Shown: one piece after another, positions 209-35,619 of the stretch
How the letters are laid out: every line of letters begins with the position of its first letter
Position numbering within the stretch: position 1 is the stretch's first letter
Source: Nitrospinota bacterium
GTDB lineage: Bacteria > Nitrospinota_A > UBA7883
Length of the DNA: 64,000 bases
NCBI GenBank assembly: GCA_965223725.1
Contig: CBDCXE010000003.1
Span: 156,689 to 220,688, forward strand
Reading direction: 5' to 3'
The notes under the pieces: generated by a model
What the model was told of the DNA's origin: nothing
The model's input: only the letters and a program-made list of their open reading frames with translations
The model's database searches: none
Program-made: the position numbers and the translations under genes

Positions 209-1111
209 ATGGCTGTAAAACTTCTGGTGAACGGTTTTTTCCGGAGCGGGACGACCATCATCTGGAAAATCCTAAAAAAGAGCAACCCGAACGCTCTGGT
301 CCTTTATGAACCATGCCACGAGCTGATCGTCCATCATCTGGAGGAGTACCAACGTAAGCCGTTCGTCGATGAAACCCACGGCATGGATATCTGGGAGGAT
401 TACACGAAAGCTCCCGGCCTGATCGATAAAATCAGGCAGACGCATCCGAACCTGGGCAAGGGAAGGCTGTTGCCGGAGAGCGCGGATGATCTGCTCCGCT
501 ACGTTACTATCTTCGACCAGCTGGATAAAGATATAGTATTGCAAACCAACCGCTGGAGTTTTCATCTGAAAGAAATTACCGAGTCCAGCGGTTGCAAGAC
601 AATCCAGGTTGTCCGCAACCCGATCGATGTGTACAGGTCCATCATGGGAATTTATTTCAAACAGGGCGCCGCGCCGAAGCGGGCCATCAAAAATTTGCTG
701 AAACCGCTGTTCATCAACAAGGCGTTCGGCCTTGGCCCCATGTATAAGCATACATGGAACAAGTTTGGCGGAGCGTCCCACGGGTGGGAGCCGCCCTCGA
801 AAACAGCGATTAACATGAGGCCGTTTAATACGTTTCTGATCACATGGACCATGGCCAATTACAGCGCGCTGAAGGCGACACAGGGCGCGGGTGGAACATT
901 CGTATCGTATGAAACGGTGATGAACAACCCAGACGAGCTGAAAACTATAACAAATGAAAGCACAGGACTGGAGTTCAACCATGTCGGCATTTTGACCGAG
1001 CCGAAACGCCGCTTATTCATAACCGATGCGGAGCGGTGTGTGTTGGTGGCAAAGGCGGAGCAGTTAAATATAAACGAGGAGTTTAACTGCATCCTGAAAA
1101 AACTGGCCTGA
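209..1111 (+). CDS. sulfotransferase family protein
   Basis: 300 aa ORF; N-terminal FFRSGTT motif matches the PAPS 5'-phosphosulfate-binding loop of sulfotransferases (Stf0-like). Confidence 0.55.
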   Translation: MAVKLLVNGFFRSGTTIIWKILKKSNPNALVLYEPCHELIVHHLEEYQRKPFVDETHGMDIWEDYTKAPGLIDKIRQTHPNLGKGRLLPESADDLLRYVTIFDQLDKDIVLQTNRWSFHLKEITESSGCKTIQVVRNPIDVYRSIMGIYFKQGAAPKRAIKNLLKPLFINKAFGLGPMYKHTWNKFGGASHGWEPPSKTAINMRPFNTFLITWTMANYSALKATQGAGGTFVSYETVMNNPDELKTITNESTGLEFNHVGILTEPKRRLFITDAERCVLVAKAEQLNINEEFNCILKKLA

Positions 1112-3325: not shown

Positions 3326-4282
3326 CTACTGTTTATCTAAAGAGTTCCTGCGCTCCTCCAGCAGATCTTCCAGCGTTTTATCCAGCGCGATCACCGGCGC
3401 CCAACCGGTCAGTGTGTTTAGCCTGGAAGCGGAGCCATATACAACCGGATTCTCCGACGCCCGCGCCCTGTCCGGGTCCAATACATGCTCGATTTTGCCA
3501 GTATAATTGCTAAGGTTAACAAGCCGGTTATAGACCGATTCGATCTTCATAGGTATGCCAGAGCAGATATTGTATATGGCGCCCGACTCAGCTTTTTCCA
3601 ATATCGACGTGAACGCCCGGACCACATCCCGCACATCACAAAAATCGCGCATGGCCCCCAGGTTGCCTGTTTTGATAACCGGCTCCTGCAACCCCGCCTC
3701 GATCCGGGCGATCTGCGTGGCGAACGCGGGCGCCGCGAACAGCTGTGACTGGCCCGGCCCGGTGAAATTGAAAGGACGCGCTATCACCACATGCAGTTTG
3801 CCGCTGTGGGCATATTGACCGGCAATAATCTCAGCGCACAATTTCGATGCGGAATAATGGTTGGCCGGCGCGGGCTCTCTGGTCTCTGGAACCGGGTTTT
3901 CGTCTGGCTTGACTTTCCCGTAAACTTCGGCGCTGCTGACGACAAGGGTTTTGCAGCTCGAGGTGTTTCTGGCCAGCGCTTCCAGCAGGTTGCATGTGCC
4001 GACACTGTTTATCTGGTATGCGTATGGTGGATTTTTATTCGCCTCCGGTACGAACGAAAGGGCGGCCATGTGATAAACCTCGTCTGGCTTGACATCTTTA
4101 ATGACAGATTCCAGATCGCCGAGCTTATTTAGGTTCAACTCGACCCCTTTTCCCCTGAAACCACCTGGCAAAGGACTAGAGCTGTATGTGCCGAAAACTT
4201 CTGCGTCGGGCGCCACGGTGGAGATATGCTCCGCCAGATGCGCTCCGGCGAAGCCTGCGGCCCCGGTAATGAGAACTCTCAT
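3326..4282 (-). CDS. NAD-dependent epimerase/dehydratase (GDP-sugar reductase/4,6-dehydratase-like)
   Basis: N-terminal Rossmann motif ITGAAGFAGAHL, YSASK catalytic motif; 318 aa. Confidence 0.8.
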   Translation of the reverse strand: MRVLITGAAGFAGAHLAEHISTVAPDAEVFGTYSSSPLPGGFRGKGVELNLNKLGDLESVIKDVKPDEVYHMAALSFVPEANKNPPYAYQINSVGTCNLLEALARNTSSCKTLVVSSAEVYGKVKPDENPVPETREPAPANHYSASKLCAEIIAGQYAHSGKLHVVIARPFNFTGPGQSQLFAAPAFATQIARIEAGLQEPVIKTGNLGAMRDFCDVRDVVRAFTSILEKAESGAIYNICSGIPMKIESVYNRLVNLSNYTGKIEHVLDPDRARASENPVVYGSASRLNTLTGWAPVIALDKTLEDLLEERRNSLDKQ

Positions 4283-4287
4283 TTAAA

Positions 4288-5175
4288 TCATGGTTGTTGT
4301 GATTGCCCGGAGTTTACCGACAGGATCATGACAAAGCTCGATTTCGATTTTTCCTTGTCCACCCCCCGCAGGAAGTTGACACTGAAGGAATCGGAGACGC
4401 CTTCCGAGCTGGCGATGACAACGCTTCCCGGGTCGTCCATCAAAATTTCTGTCGCCGCGTTTTTAACAATGAATGTTTCCCTCTTCTTGTCGTAATAGCT
4501 GACTTCTGGAACGAGGGAGACCCGCATCTTACCCTTACCAGCGCTCCTTGCCGTCACAACAAAGCTGGTACCAGCGTCCTTGAACTTCACATTTCTGGAG
4601 ATATAGCCATAGCGATAGCCATAGCTGAAAAAGTACTCCGTCAACGGCACCGATTCACCAACGAATATCCTGCCCTCGTGCCCTTCCATGAGCAGCAGAA
4701 ACTGCTTCTTCTTGCTGTCGAGGGTGGAGGAGGTGACCGAGCCTGTTACATGGACACCTTCCATGTCGTGGGGAACATTGCCCACGGTCCATCCAGGCCC
4801 CGAAATTCGCCAGTCCACATTGATTCCCAGCTTGTCCAGTTGCTCCTTCTCGATGAAATCGACATCTATCCGGATATTCTTCGGCCTGCGGTCCAGCCGC
4901 GCGATAAGGTCACGCGCCCTGGCGATATAAGCGGGAGTATCTACAACAATTAGAGTATTGGAAGGTGAGTTGACCGTGACCTTGCCTTTGTCACTCAGCA
5001 CAGACGCAACAGATTCGATAAGCTCCTGCGCGTCGGAATAATGGATCTCGAATACTTCAACAACGGTGGATTGGGCATATGCCGGGCTAGCCATAAGCAG
5101 AAGCTTGCAAAACACCAACCCGGCAAATGTTACCTTCGCAGATCCATCCATACGAATAATTTTATGCCATGGCAT
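4288..5175 (-). CDS. secretin N-domain (NolW-like) containing protein, signal-peptide bearing, lacks recognisable secretin C-domain
   Basis: Signal peptide (LLLMASPAYAQ) followed by a secretin_N-like module (ELIESVASVLSDKGKVTVNSPSNTLIVVDTPAYIARARDLIARL); 5-nt gap to the downstream epimerase; overlaps the upstream gene by 14 nt. Confidence 0.5.
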   Translation of the reverse strand: MPWHKIIRMDGSAKVTFAGLVFCKLLLMASPAYAQSTVVEVFEIHYSDAQELIESVASVLSDKGKVTVNSPSNTLIVVDTPAYIARARDLIARLDRRPKNIRIDVDFIEKEQLDKLGINVDWRISGPGWTVGNVPHDMEGVHVTGSVTSSTLDSKKKQFLLLMEGHEGRIFVGESVPLTEYFFSYGYRYGYISRNVKFKDAGTSFVVTARSAGKGKMRVSLVPEVSYYDKKRETFIVKNAATEILMDDPGSVVIASSEGVSDSFSVNFLRGVDKEKSKSSFVMILSVNSGQSQQP

Positions 5176-6113: not shown

Positions 6114-6175
6114 TAAACACCTCCTCAAAGACAGATTAAATTTGCCAAATCCGTCGCACACATTTATAATGTTAA

Positions 6176-6191
6176 TTAACAGATCTGTTAA
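6176..6191. promoter_or_regulatory. perfect 16-bp palindrome TTAACAGATCTGTTAA (putative operator) in divergent promoter region, with TATAAT at 6165-6170
   Basis: Read directly; lies between the divergently transcribed Xis-like HTH gene and the cI/LexA-like repressor gene. Confidence 0.45.
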
Positions 6192-6213
6192 ATGTCAATA
6201 CAAAAATTTACTA

Positions 6214-6939
6214 ATGCATAAAACAAATATTGCAGACCCGGAAGCCATTGGAAAAAGAATCAGGGCTATCAGAGGAAAGCAGACTTTGAAGCAGTTTGGC
6301 GACATTATCGGTGTTTCCCATACATCTGTCAAAAGGTATGAAGAGGGAACATTACCAGATATAAACATACTTCTGAAAATCGCCAGCGCAGGCAAAATCG
6401 ACCTGGGGATGCTGATTTTGGGAGAGCTTCTTCCGGTCGATGTGCGGGAGGCCAGGCCATTGGAAATTAACATTATCGACGACAAAAAGCATAAGGCTGA
6501 TGGCCTTAAAGAGTATGATTATATACCTGTTCCGATAACCGAGGGCAAGGTCGCCGCGGGCGCGCCAAGGATCATGGAAGATGATACGATCGATTACCTG
6601 CTAATACATTTCTGGATGCTTAAAAAAAGTGAAGTGTCGAAAAATATCATCGCGTGCAGGCTGGAGGGAGAGTCGATGTACCCACACCTTTCATCGGGCG
6701 ACATTGTCATAATAGACCGTGGGATAGACAAGGATAAAATCGAGGAGCGGCGAATCTACGCCATTTTCGAAAGTGGCGGTATTACAGTCAAAATGCTACA
6801 AAAAGATGGGCCGCACCTTTATCTTGTTCCCTCCAATTCCGCCGAGAAAATCCGCCATGTCGATCTGCGGGAGGTGGAGCATCCGGTCGTCGGGCTGGTG
6901 GTGGGCGCCTGGAAAAATTTTGGAGGTAAACTGGATTAG
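6214..6939 (+). CDS. XRE-family HTH + S24 peptidase repressor (phage cI/LexA-like, autocleavable)
   Basis: N-terminal HTH (RIRAIRGKQTLKQFGDIIGVSHTSVKRYE); C-terminal S24 motifs GESMYP (Ser nucleophile) and ITVKML (Lys). Confidence 0.8.
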   Translation: MHKTNIADPEAIGKRIRAIRGKQTLKQFGDIIGVSHTSVKRYEEGTLPDINILLKIASAGKIDLGMLILGELLPVDVREARPLEINIIDDKKHKADGLKEYDYIPVPITEGKVAAGAPRIMEDDTIDYLLIHFWMLKKSEVSKNIIACRLEGESMYPHLSSGDIVIIDRGIDKDKIEERRIYAIFESGGITVKMLQKDGPHLYLVPSNSAEKIRHVDLREVEHPVVGLVVGAWKNFGGKLD

Positions 6940-8233: not shown

Positions 8234-8327
8234 GGAAGATGAGCGCGCCCGGTGGCGCGGCTGGACTTCAAATCCAGACAGGGGCGAATACGTCCTGGGA
8301 GGGTTCGACTCCCTTCATCTTCCGCCA
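8234..8327 (+). tRNA. selC: tRNA-Sec (selenocysteine tRNA, anticodon UCA)
   Basis: 94 nt: 8-bp acceptor stem GGAAGATG/CATCTTCC, 6-bp D-stem with 4-nt loop, anticodon loop CTTCAAA (UCA), long variable arm, T-arm GGTTCGACTCC, discriminator G, encoded CCA; near-identical in all arms to E. coli selC. Confidence 0.9.
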
Positions 8328-32802: not shown

Positions 32803-33675
32803 TCAGCCATCGCCCAGCAGTGGGTAGCCCATCTGTTCCCGAAGCGCCATATATCCCTCCGACACCCGTTTCGCGATGGCCCGGACCCGACCGATATAGC
32901 CGGTGCGGGCGGTGACCGATATGGCGTTGCGCGCGTCGAGCATGTTGAAGGTGTGACTGCATTTCAGGCAATAATCATACGCTGGCAATACCAGGCCTTC
33001 ATCCAGCAGTCGATGGCTCTCTTTCTCATACTCGTCGAACCATTTCAAATGCAGCTCGATATCCGCCTGATTGAAGTTGTAGTCAGAGAACTCAACCTCC
33101 GTCCGATGATGAACATCGCCGTATGTGATGTCATCGTTCCATTTCAGGTCGTATATATTGTCGCAATTCTGCAGGTACATGGCGATCCGCTCCAGCCCGT
33201 AGGTCAGCTCCGCGGTGACCGGCTTCAGGTCGATGCCGCCGCACTGCTGAAAATAAGTGAACTGGGTGATCTCCATCCCGTCGAGCCACACCTCCCAACC
33301 AAGGCCCCAGGCGCCGAGGGTGGGCGACTCCCAATCGTCTTCCACGAACCGGATATCATGCTGTTCCGGCCGGATACCAAGGTCCATCATCGATTCGAGA
33401 TACAGATCCTGAGTGTTCTCCGGGTTCGGCTTGATGACCACCTGATACTGATAATAATGTTGCAGGCGGTTCGGGTTCTCGCCATACCGGCCGTCGGTGG
33501 GGCGGCGGGAAGGCTCCACATAGGCCGCCTTCCACGGCTCCGGACCGAGAGCTCGCAGAAAAGTATGCGGGCTGAAGGTCCCGGCGCCGACTTCGATATC
33601 ATACGGCTGGACGATCAGAAAACCTCTGCTCGACCAGAATTGCTCCAACCTTAAAATAACATCCTGAAAATTCAA
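32803..33675 (-). CDS. glyQ: glycine--tRNA ligase alpha subunit
   Basis: Near-collinear with E. coli GlyQ ([32 protein letters not shown]); probable TTG start near 33675; the ORF-track start at 33834 is a non-homologous N-terminal extension. Confidence 0.85.
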
Positions 33676-34088
33676 ATTTACTCCGAAAGATAAGTGTAAA
33701 GATAAATTGGAAGGATACCCCGCCCGCGCTCCATTTGCAAGGGGCGAAGGGCGAAGAGGGCTGAACAGTCCAGGCGCGCCAGACGAGTCGAAAGTCCGCC
33801 GGGCCGGATGGCCGCAGGCTCGATCAATCAACAATGTAAAACCAAATTCATATCCACGTCATAACAGACACTCCACAGTAAACAGTTACCACGCACACAT
33901 TAATATAATAATAAATTTATGAATAAAGTCAAGAAGGAAATGAAAAGTTGGTAGGGTGGGTGATTGGTAGGGGAAGGTAAAAATAAAAATCTGTAAAAAG
34001 CGACTAGACCGGTGGAGTGAAAAGTTGAATTAGTGAAATAAATTGTGCTACCCTTTATTTATAAACAAACAAGGGTTCAATTATTACA

Positions 34089-34529
34089 ATGCTTAATTCA
34101 TCAATTACAACATTACCTAATACAGATGTGCTTCAGGATATTTCGGACACTATTAAGTTTCTAAAAAAAGAAGCACATAAAAAGTTTTCATTTTTGAAAG
34201 TTATATGGAAAGTATTTAAAATACAGGCGAAATTTAGAATTTTATTGAATAATATCGAACTAATTGAAAAAAAATCATTTGGAATAGCAAAGCCAGACCA
34301 TCAAATTTGGCAAGAAATAAAAGATCAACTTTCGGTAGCTTGTTCTGATAGTAATGAATTTATTGCCATACTGAAAGATTACAACTATTTAAAGCTTTTT
34401 ATTAAATCTCAAGAAGAAATTTCAGATAGATTTGAAGAAAAACTCGAAGCCTATCAATTTGTAGGGGATAGCGAAGCCAATGACTTAATGAATGAAATAG
34501 CTGAACTGGCAACGCGTGACAGTGGATGA
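34089..34529 (+). CDS. hypothetical alpha-helical protein (first gene of AT-rich cassette)
   Basis: 146 aa ORF in the AT-rich island; 14-nt overlap with the downstream RelE/HigB-like ORF; no recognised family. Confidence 0.4.
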   Translation: MLNSSITTLPNTDVLQDISDTIKFLKKEAHKKFSFLKVIWKVFKIQAKFRILLNNIELIEKKSFGIAKPDHQIWQEIKDQLSVACSDSNEFIAILKDYNYLKLFIKSQEEISDRFEEKLEAYQFVGDSEANDLMNEIAELATRDSG

Positions 34530-34866
34530 TTTACTACCCTTCTTTGCTCGACAGATAGACAAGATATTAAAAAGCTATCCTAACTCAAATAGCTCCCTCA
34601 ATAACCTACTTTTAAAGATATCAGATAATCCATTATCATTCGGCAATCGAATGCCAGGTTTCGATCAACATATTAGGAAAATAAGAGCAGGTTTTCCAGA
34701 GTATAAGATTTCTAAAAGAGATGGAGCGCGTATTATTATATTGGTTACAGAGCAGCAAAAACCAATATTTATATCTATTTATTTAAAATCTAAGTCCAAA
34801 GGCGAGCAGGCTGAAATAAAATACATAAAAGATAAACTTAAGGAAATAAAATCTGAGTTGGAATAG
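34516..34866 (+). CDS. RelE/ParE/HigB(Gp49)-superfamily toxin-like protein
   Basis: C-terminal core IRKIRAGFPEYKISKRDGARIIILVTEQQKPIFISIYLKSK fits the RelE/HigB pattern (G..R.iy...g..i.i..i..K). Confidence 0.45.
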   Translation: MTVDDLLPFFARQIDKILKSYPNSNSSLNNLLLKISDNPLSFGNRMPGFDQHIRKIRAGFPEYKISKRDGARIIILVTEQQKPIFISIYLKSKSKGEQAEIKYIKDKLKEIKSELE

Positions 34867-34955
34867 TGGGGTCAGGTCTTTGATTTTGATATTCCATGAA
34901 ACGATTTCTGCGGCGCAGTAGCTGAGCGTTCCAATTCATAACAGCAATCCGTGTG

Positions 34956-35273
34956 CTATTGCGCAGTAAGCACTTCCAGTTGAACACCTTCTTTCTTTTG
35001 CAGATAATTAATCATTTCAAAAAGATTTTGCGCCTGGGGGTTGCCGCGGGCGCCGAGCATGCGCATCAGGCTTTTGGGTGATTTGTTCATGGCGCGGGCC
35101 AGCTCCTCGAAACCTATGGTGGCGTTAATATAATCGCGAAGCGCCGCCTTGCCGGTCTCCATATCGTTGGCAAGCATGAGCTGGACAGCTTCCGTCAGTA
35201 ACGCGTTGCGGAACCCTTTATCATGCAGCGCGCGCTCCTGAATTGTCTCTTTAAAATCCCGTGTCAATACCAT
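34956..35273 (-). CDS. higA: HigA-family addiction-module antidote protein
   Basis: Antidote-protein pattern (TIQERALHDKGFRNALLTEAVQLMLAND ... MNKSPKSLMRMLGARGNP); overlaps the upstream toxin gene. Confidence 0.75.
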   Translation of the reverse strand: MVLTRDFKETIQERALHDKGFRNALLTEAVQLMLANDMETGKAALRDYINATIGFEELARAMNKSPKSLMRMLGARGNPQAQNLFEMINYLQKKEGVQLEVLTAQ

Positions 35274-35619
35274 CCTGTTTTTCCTCTCTTTTCCTCTTCT
35301 TATAATCCAGCCATAAAAGTTTGGCGCTCTCTATATCCTTCTGTTGCCGTTTTTTCGTGCCGCCGCCCAGCAAAATAATTAGCCGGTCTCCATCTTTACC
35401 AAAGTAAATTCGGTAGCCGGGACCAAAATCGAGCCGCAATTCCCAGACACCGGCTCCAACGCTTTTATGGTCGGACAAGTTGCCCAGTTCGACCCGTGTC
35501 AGAGCTATGGTTACCCGCACGGCGGTAGTTGCATTCAGACGATTGAACCATTTTGCGAATGGACTTTTGCCATGTGTGTCCAAATACTCTCTGACTTCAA
35601 CCATGTTAAATGGTAACAT
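35251..35619 (-). CDS. higB: addiction-module killer protein (HigB/RelE-like toxin)
   Basis: VGAGVWELRLDFGPGYRIYFGKDGDRLIILLGGGTKKRQQKDIESAK matches the killer-protein family; likely start at internal Met (AAGGT 6 nt upstream); the ORF-track start at 35706 is an extension. Confidence 0.7.
   Translation of the reverse strand: MLPFNMVEVREYLDTHGKSPFAKWFNRLNATTAVRVTIALTRVELGNLSDHKSVGAGVWELRLDFGPGYRIYFGKDGDRLIILLGGGTKKRQQKDIESAKLLWLDYKKRKREEKQDGIDTGF

Follow-up and report, generated by a model that had tools for sequence, protein, structure and literature searches.

The toxin-antitoxin (TA) module HigB2-HigA2 of V. cholerae (5JAA, 5MJE; PF06296) has its toxin gene in front of its antitoxin gene, and HigA2, a helix-turn-helix (HTH) protein, neutralizes the toxin through a disordered N-terminal region (PMC5416850). 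HigB2 cleaves in a ribosome-dependent manner, with an active site assigned by mutagenesis to Arg51, Arg64, Tyr82, and Lys84 (PMC5416850). In RelBE, YefM-YoeB, and ParDE, the antitoxin comes first and neutralizes through a C-terminal helix, and the antitoxins are 70-95 amino acids (aa) long, with N-terminal DNA-binding domains of the ribbon-helix-helix (RHH), Phd/YefM, or related types. The locus described here lies in a 64,000-nucleotide stretch of DNA from a Nitrospinota bacterium (contig CBDCXE010000003.1; the whole stretch is called the window below), where an AT-rich segment carries two overlapping open reading frames (ORFs), ORF1 upstream and ORF2 downstream. This segment is probably a horizontally acquired, bicistronic type II TA module in which ORF2 is the toxin and ORF1 the antitoxin. 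As a system it is of an ordinary kind, and its only new feature is the partner, ORF1.

ORF2 and its relation to HigB2

An exhaustive phmmer search with ORF2 returned 114 relatives at E ≤ 0.001, nearly all of them 111-138 aa long and aligned over their full length; a word-index homologue search with the single protein in a collection of 5.8 billion clusters returned nothing. The top phmmer hit, a 2693 aa VWA-repeat protein (P0002), was excluded as a false positive, as its score is the sum of 12 weak matches to KKRDGAQVILIIL and it does not match the family hidden Markov model (HMM). In an alignment of 99 sequences (A1), nine positions are nearly invariant (F10, G43, K55, R57, G70, R72, Y89, K91, and E97), and ORF2 retains all of them. 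A profile of 99 relatives finds the V. cholerae HigB2 chains 5JA8, 5JA9, and 5MJE in the PDB with E values of 1.1e-12 to 2.1e-12, and a profile search gathers 417 homologues, with PF06296 carried by most of the 120 listed.

The alignment-based AlphaFold2 (AF2) model of ORF2 has a predicted local distance difference test score (pLDDT) of 93.3 and is a small alpha/beta protein, with N-terminal helices on a 3-4-stranded antiparallel sheet as in the RelE/ParE superfamily. Its best Foldseek match is HigB2 (5jaa_D), at a probability of 0.99 and a structure-based sequence identity of about 20-22%. Because the mutagenesis-defined residues R51, R64, Y82, and K84 of HigB2 align to R57, R72, Y89, and K91, ORF2 is identified by homology as an intact, divergent RelE/HigB2-type toxin with predicted activity, and as a new member of a well-known toxin family. 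An earlier interpretation made from the letters of the DNA alone (the sequence-only reading) had placed ORF2 in the RelE/ParE superfamily, and the sequence profile, the fold, and the active site all agree with this.

A family of long upstream partners

ORF1-type and ORF2-type genes were found paired in nine independent modules, the window included. Seven other loci have a full-length ORF of 141-157 aa directly upstream of the toxin gene on the same strand (L081-83; L085/86, from a Deferrisoma metagenome-assembled genome; L087; L088/91; L089; L090; and L093), and in L092 only a C-terminal fragment of the partner is visible, with the motif described below. The partner gene overlaps the toxin start at 8/8 measurable junctions, by 14 nt here and by 1-20 nt in the seven other modules. 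Two small, adjacent, co-oriented, and usually overlapping genes whose pairing is conserved across genomes are the arrangement that defines type II TA modules. The gene sizes and the overlap given in the sequence-only reading were correct. Its remark that a 146 aa partner of no recognizable family is atypical also holds, although the same type of gene recurs in eight other loci, and therefore ORF1 represents a family and not an oddity of one locus.

The long partners align with ORF1 at 14-29% identity, L087 being the closest, and have in common a C-terminal motif, [WYF]E[DN]xLE[DN][YF]x[IFL][AGV]xD[PSD]E...L...[IL][AS]. Their C-terminal 35 residues are acidic in 8/8 members (isoelectric point, pI, 4.1-5.5) and the remainder is basic in 7/8 (pI 8.7-10.8); in ORF1, the respective values are 4.1 and 9.0. 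The toxins have a pI of 9.7-10.3, and an acidic partner C-terminus set against a basic toxin is the classical antitoxin layout. ORF1 has no meaningful match in Pfam, NCBIfam, PADLOC, PHROGs, or PDB sequences, and in the 5.8-billion-cluster collection it matches only itself. Eight members of the partner family likewise show no consistent Pfam or PHROG family and no solved antitoxin, and the family matches none of the known antitoxin models (Phd/YefM, RelB, ParD, RHH, HTH, and Panacea). Profile searches of the PDB with the family find designed helical repeats only. The partner family is thus covered by no library and appears to be new. The C-terminal motif had been considered as a neutralizing helix like that of Phd/YefM, a reading that is unsupported, the designed helical repeats being matched via a generic DPExxxL helix cap.

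Two further features of the partners were observed. Clusters of cysteines occur in the middle of the protein, at columns of about 85-100 in the partner alignment (A4), in L085 (CIGCSHRC), L089 (CAICTDPTC), L090 (CNTMCEDGKC), and L087 (DCSKESPC), and may bind a metal or act in redox chemistry; the window's ORF1 has a single cysteine in these columns. Also, L087 has a 72 aa ORF at 110-328, with no Pfam match, whose end overlaps the partner gene start by 1 nt. This arrangement points to an operon of three genes in L087, and no equivalent ORF exists in the window.

Compared with HigA2, ORF1 is encoded upstream of its toxin, is all-helical as modelled, lacks a detectable HTH, and has its conserved motif in the C-terminal part. 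The gene order and the domain content of HigBA are therefore not those of this pair, and the order, which the sequence-only reading called atypical, is so only with respect to the HigBA label. Within the clade of the toxin itself the order is normal, as every relative with the upstream side on its contig has a partner there. The more distant toxins of the family have an upstream partner of 74-88 aa (L094, L096, L097/98, L099, and L101), and in L095 only a 36-residue C-terminal fragment of such a short-type partner is visible. Because long and short partners alike lie upstream, partner-first order is the rule of the clade. The same order is also general in RelBE and ParDE.

The toxins of the short-antitoxin modules (L094-L099 and L101) are homologous to ORF2, with E values of 1e-20 to 1e-23 against the family profile, and the overlap between partner and toxin is 11-26 nt. 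Their partners, in contrast, end in a C-terminus of the type '...G.....E.LL.EL' and show no significant similarity to the ORF1 family, with E values no better than 0.05 against its HMM. The likeness of the ORF1 motif to short antitoxins, such as that of L096 ('...ETTYLAESPTFRRLV'), is not statistically supported. Partner swapping of this kind is well documented (PMC10440598), and the replacement of short 74-88 aa antitoxins by the long family would be an instance of it.

Taken together, the pairing across nine modules, the toxin fold, and the charge pattern are best accounted for by a type II TA module, as the sequence-only reading had suggested among its options. By analogy with HigB2, ORF2 would most likely enter the ribosomal A site and cleave the mRNA being translated through the Arg/Arg/Tyr/Lys site. 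ORF1 would be the cognate antitoxin, translationally coupled to ORF2 through the overlap, and its acidic C-terminal helix-loop-helix motif would bind and neutralize the basic toxin. The basic, helical N-terminal part of ORF1 (about 110 residues) may serve in dimerization and/or in operator binding that represses the operon, and degradation of ORF1 would free the toxin.

Several observations weigh against this assignment. ORF2 alone falls under the PF06296 threshold, with no match at E ≤ 1; it has no NCBIfam match, and its best Pfam match is to Gp49 at E 0.032, with 14.7 bits against a cut-off of 23.9 bits. RelE/ParE folds can also act as gyrase poisons, and such a mechanism is conceivable for ORF2, as 15 of the 99 family members scanned match ParE_toxin (7 match RelE, and the Gp49 model is also matched). 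For ORF1, no DNA-binding or known antitoxin domain is detectable, and the single-sequence AF2 model, all-helical, is unreliable (pLDDT 45). Furthermore, ORF2 was probably not called in the source annotation, because no protein of its locus is present in the 5.8-billion-cluster collection while proteins of the same 369 kb contig are (ORF1, the neighboring 105 aa protein, DUF1538, P-II, and FolE).

Acquisition and accessory context

The homologous modules are more AT-rich than their flanks in every locus with usable flanks. The module and flank GC contents are 0.32 and 0.46-0.48 in L081, 0.37 and 0.47-0.55 in L087, 0.34 and 0.42 in L089, 0.39 and 0.43-0.51 in L090, and 0.65 and 0.68-0.71 in L085, where the difference is only about 0.05. 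The L089 region, probably an integrative island, has a tyrosine integrase (316-1569; PF00589, E 1.7e-28) immediately upstream of the module, and a DUF6932 protein and a ligase-like ORF downstream of it. The translated start of this contig resembles a tRNA 3′ end, but ARAGORN detected no tRNA. L085 has a type I restriction-modification (R-M) system downstream of the module. L090 has a 25-nt repeat, GTTCATCCCCACGTGTGTGGGGAAC, that occurs three times at 2391-2537 with a period of 61 nt, about 250 nt downstream of the module, and its copies look like an array of clustered regularly interspaced short palindromic repeats (CRISPR). Three ORFs on the minus strand of L090 (2555-5194) resemble cas5, cas7, and cas6 by eye, and a 105 aa IS200/RAYT-like ORF (702-1019, minus strand; ...CLMPTHYHLL...) lies upstream of the module. 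In L081, a tRNA-Arg gene (4492-4568) is found about 1.1 kb downstream.

Horizontal acquisition of the module is well supported, because the modules are AT-rich relative to their flanks and sit in contexts typical of accessory DNA. The organism behind L087 is related to that of the window, with a FolE that is 77% identical, and its module is located beside cytochrome genes, in a different neighborhood and in a different orientation relative to folE. This different placement neither proves nor disproves insertion.

The same contexts bear on whether the pair works in defense. In an anti-phage abortive-infection system, a phage-sensing ORF1 would release the RelE-type toxin and halt translation in infected cells, a function that overlaps with the TA reading and is compatible with it. 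ORF2 matches the phage family phrog_5869 (E 8.5e-8), relatives are found beside type I R-M genes, CRISPR-cas, and an integrase island with a DUF6932 protein, the window module adjoins another toxin gene, and the unusually large partner leaves room for a second function. However, association with defense islands is generic for TA modules. PADLOC-DB 2.0 has nothing for ORF1 and, for ORF2, only an orphan-methyltransferase model at E 0.01, and neither protein has a match in 50,697 phage records or 72,556 plasmids, nor was a relative found in a scan of viral contigs. A dedicated anti-phage role is unlikely. Still more doubtful is a broader proposal, according to which the 141-157 aa proteins would be a new antitoxin fold whose basic N-terminal domain also senses phage or stress and releases the toxin, possibly via CxxC...C, on a cassette that is mobilized in trans and leaves short direct repeats behind.

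The AT-rich segment, its neighbors, and the flanking repeats

The segment holding the module is compositionally foreign (Table 1). In 200-nt windows, the GC content is 0.27-0.38 over about 33880-34900 and 0.5-0.6 on both sides, and the bin 34001-35000 (GC 0.329) is the lowest of 64 one-kb bins. The GC content between the two repeat copies is 0.322, against a mean of 0.504 (standard deviation 0.044) for stretches of the same size over the 64 kb, of which the next lowest outside the island has 0.394. At third codon positions, GC is 0.22 in ORF1 and 0.29 in ORF2, compared with 0.72 in glyQ and 0.60 in the resident partner gene. ORF1 and ORF2 are the only substantial ORFs of the island.

Table 1. 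Features of the module and of its surroundings, in positions of the window.
Feature	Position	Strand	Remarks
AT-rich, compositionally foreign segment	33822..34909	.	Composition change points (approximate) at both ends
ORF1, 146 aa, all-helical candidate antitoxin	34089..34529	+	141-157 aa partner family
ORF2, 116 aa, predicted RelE/HigB2-type toxin	34516..34866	+	GTG start; 14-nt overlap with ORF1
AT-rich non-coding leader of the module	33868..34088	+	Holds the TTGGTAGGG tandem direct repeat and a minus-strand promoter-like site
Left direct-repeat copy, TCCAcgTCATAACAG	33853..33867	+	Exact 9-mer at 33859-33867; significance marginal
Right direct-repeat copy, TCCAatTCATAACAG	34930..34944	+	Exact 9-mer at 34936-34944
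glyQ, glycyl-tRNA synthetase alpha subunit	32803..33669	-	PF02091, E 1e-146
Resident toxin gene, Gp49/TIGR02683-type RelE/ParE family	35251..35610	-	TIGR02683, E 2.9e-30; PF05973, E 2.6e-7
105 aa gene	34956..35273	-	Downstream of the resident toxin gene, 23-nt overlap, HigA position

The leader of the module contains TTGGTAGGG as a tandem direct repeat, with copies 16 nt apart at 33948-33956 and 33964-33972. Placed upstream of ORF1, this repeat is a candidate operator, and TGAAAAGTTG, which is also present twice in the leader region (33941 and 34018), is another possible element. A promoter-like site on the minus strand (TTGACT-16-TATTAT, 33932-33905) matches the consensus at 10/12 positions and points to glyQ. 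It is the best promoter-like site near that gene, about 235 nt upstream of its start and within the AT-rich segment. The promoter of glyQ may be provided by the foreign DNA or overlap with it. Rfam has no match in 33500-35100, and nucleotide alignment of the leaders of the window and L087 gave no convincing homology.

The module is placed between the upstream region of glyQ, the housekeeping gene of the left flank, which runs into the island, and another RelE/ParE-family toxin gene. The latter belongs to the context and lies outside the cassette; its presence next to the module had been noted from the sequence alone, where it was described as part of a resident HigB/HigA pair. The Gp49-type toxin gene of this pair is real, but the HigA identity of the 105 aa gene is not confirmed, as the protein has no significant match to any HTH or antitoxin model. 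The resident pair is convergent with the module, 89 nt separating the end of ORF2 from the convergent gene. Its toxin, of the Gp49/HI1419 type, belongs to the same superfamily as ORF2, which is itself a weak Gp49 match, but differs in its toxin-first order and shows no significant profile similarity to the ORF2 family (hhalign probability 0.4%). Further out are genes for FolE, a Na/H exchanger, two DUF1538 proteins, a P-II-like protein, an HMA protein, and a multihaem cytochrome, all of the housekeeping type. Elsewhere in the window, a tRNA-SeC gene is located at 8234-8327, and a 265 aa ORF (6142-6939) that by eye resembles an HTH plus S24-peptidase repressor (LexA/CI-type) lies within 5-7 kb, where GC is 0.43-0.46.

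The sequence-only reading described the segment as a site-specific insertion with target duplication, in which the composition switches exactly at two copies of TCATAACAG. The sharp drop in GC is real, but the change points sit about 35 nt from the repeats. The repeat itself also exists, with its right copy where it had been placed (12 nt past the stop codon of the resident 105 aa gene) and its left copy at 33859-33867 instead of 33860-33868. An imperfect 21-bp match had been reported around it; the best extension is TCCAnnTCATAACAG, with 13/15 identical positions (or 15/21), and the trailing 'CC' does not align.

Whether this repeat exceeds chance depends on the width of the zones compared. 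Shuffling gives P = 0.007 with narrow zones drawn post hoc around the repeats and P = 0.08-0.12 with zones of 150-200 nt. Among zone pairs 1 kb apart in the real window sequence, matches of at least 9 nt occur in 10/414 narrow pairs (2.4%) and in 86/414 wide pairs (21%), and the 350-nt zones flanking the module (33739-34088 and 34867-35216) share three matches of at least 9 nt, one of them of 10 nt. The repeat is thus not clearly above chance, and its significance is marginal. No transposase, integrase, or other recombinase gene is present in the island, and none of 19 inverted-repeat pairs connects one end with the other immediately within the direct repeats. An insertion of the type of a miniature inverted-repeat transposable element was rejected on inspection, as the ends have no inverted repeats. 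An integron cassette was rejected as well, since no integron integrase is nearby and 34867-34951, read by eye, has no attC cores (RYYYAAC/GTTRRRY) on either strand; the TCATAAC and GTTATGA found there depart from the attC core consensus.

Homologous modules elsewhere have no common flanking repeat. The repeats that do occur vary in sequence, length, and orientation, and none are found in L087, L089, or L090. The L081 module lies in a 1.68 kb segment enclosed by a 42-nt direct repeat (81% identical) with a CCGG...CCGG hairpin, at 2042-2083 and 3722-3763. In L085, 40-nt inverted repeats (83% complementary; core CTTTATAACCTGTC / GACAGGTTATAAAG) surround the module, with 2311-2350 facing 3429-3468 and 3521-3560; the right arm sits in a 92-nt tandem duplication (3405-3588), and the type I R-M genes follow. 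Comparison with an empty site is constrained by the collections. All five proteins of the contig that were looked up, from the module and its neighbors, are singleton clusters among 15 billion sequences, and therefore the collections hold no close relative of the source genome. The best GlyQ relative among the 80 loci listed is 79% identical and not syntenic; because the nearest GlyQ relatives (L001 and L002) show no synteny around glyQ, there is no orthologous site to compare.

These data bear on how far the segment can be regarded as a 1.1 kb non-autonomous mini-cassette, moved by a transposase or site-specific recombinase acting in trans, whose insertion either produced a duplication of the 9-bp target TCATAACAG or left behind an att-like core of 15 nt. 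TCATAACAG has only two copies in the 64 kb, both lie close to the composition change points, and the narrow-zone P value is low; moreover, removal of the insert and one copy leaves a plausible intergenic region of about 210 nt between glyQ and the resident partner gene, and the repeats of L081 and L085 flank homologous modules. However, the narrow zones were set after the repeat had been seen, wider zones match often, and the module's own flanks share further matches of this length. The inner inverted repeats, the recombinase gene, and the attC cores are all missing, the repeats of other loci differ or are absent, and the glyQ-facing promoter-like site falls inside the presumed insert. A mini-cassette of this kind is accordingly a doubtful proposition. 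The target-site duplication, which would have suggested a new route by which TA cassettes move, is not established.

Remaining alternatives and what the module would add

It is improbable that ORF1 is no antitoxin but an unrelated protein (for instance, a regulator or a phage protein) transferred together with ORF2, with ORF2 neutralized in another way, for example by the neighboring 105 aa protein or by an RNA. Consistent with this idea, ORF1 lacks any known antitoxin domain, the profile of its C-terminal motif recovers designed proteins only, and L087 has the extra 72 aa ORF abutting its partner gene. On the other hand, an ORF1-type gene is the only conserved neighbor over the nine modules, always upstream, on the same strand, and overlapping the toxin start wherever the junction can be measured. 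Small neighboring ORFs are not conserved between loci, an acidic C-terminus against a basic toxin is typical of antitoxins, and the resident pair is convergent, with a toxin dissimilar in profile to the ORF2 family.

The last alternative, a leftover of some old mobile element, in decay and now functionless, has in its favor the missing recombinase or other mobile-element gene, the apparent failure of the source annotation to call ORF2, and a GTG start with no obvious Shine-Dalgarno sequence, but it is very unlikely given that both genes are full length (116 aa against 115-130 aa for the toxin family, and 146 aa against 141-157 aa for the partners), that the nearly invariant and catalytic residues are all intact, that the GTG start overlapping the partner stop (GTGACAG...TGA) is shared with the closest homologue (L087/P0003), and that the strong AT bias has not been ameliorated.

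The TA reading thus stays the probable one, and it leaves the general understanding of TA systems unchanged. The partner family has no library entry, and all bacteria in which it was found here are uncultured and environmental (Nitrospinota-like, Deferrisoma, and others). If confirmed, the module would add a family of long, all-helical antitoxins to the known partners of RelE/HigB2-type toxins. It would also provide a clean natural case of antitoxin swapping within one toxin clade, 74-88 aa against 141-157 aa, and such a swap could help to locate the part of an antitoxin that determines specificity.

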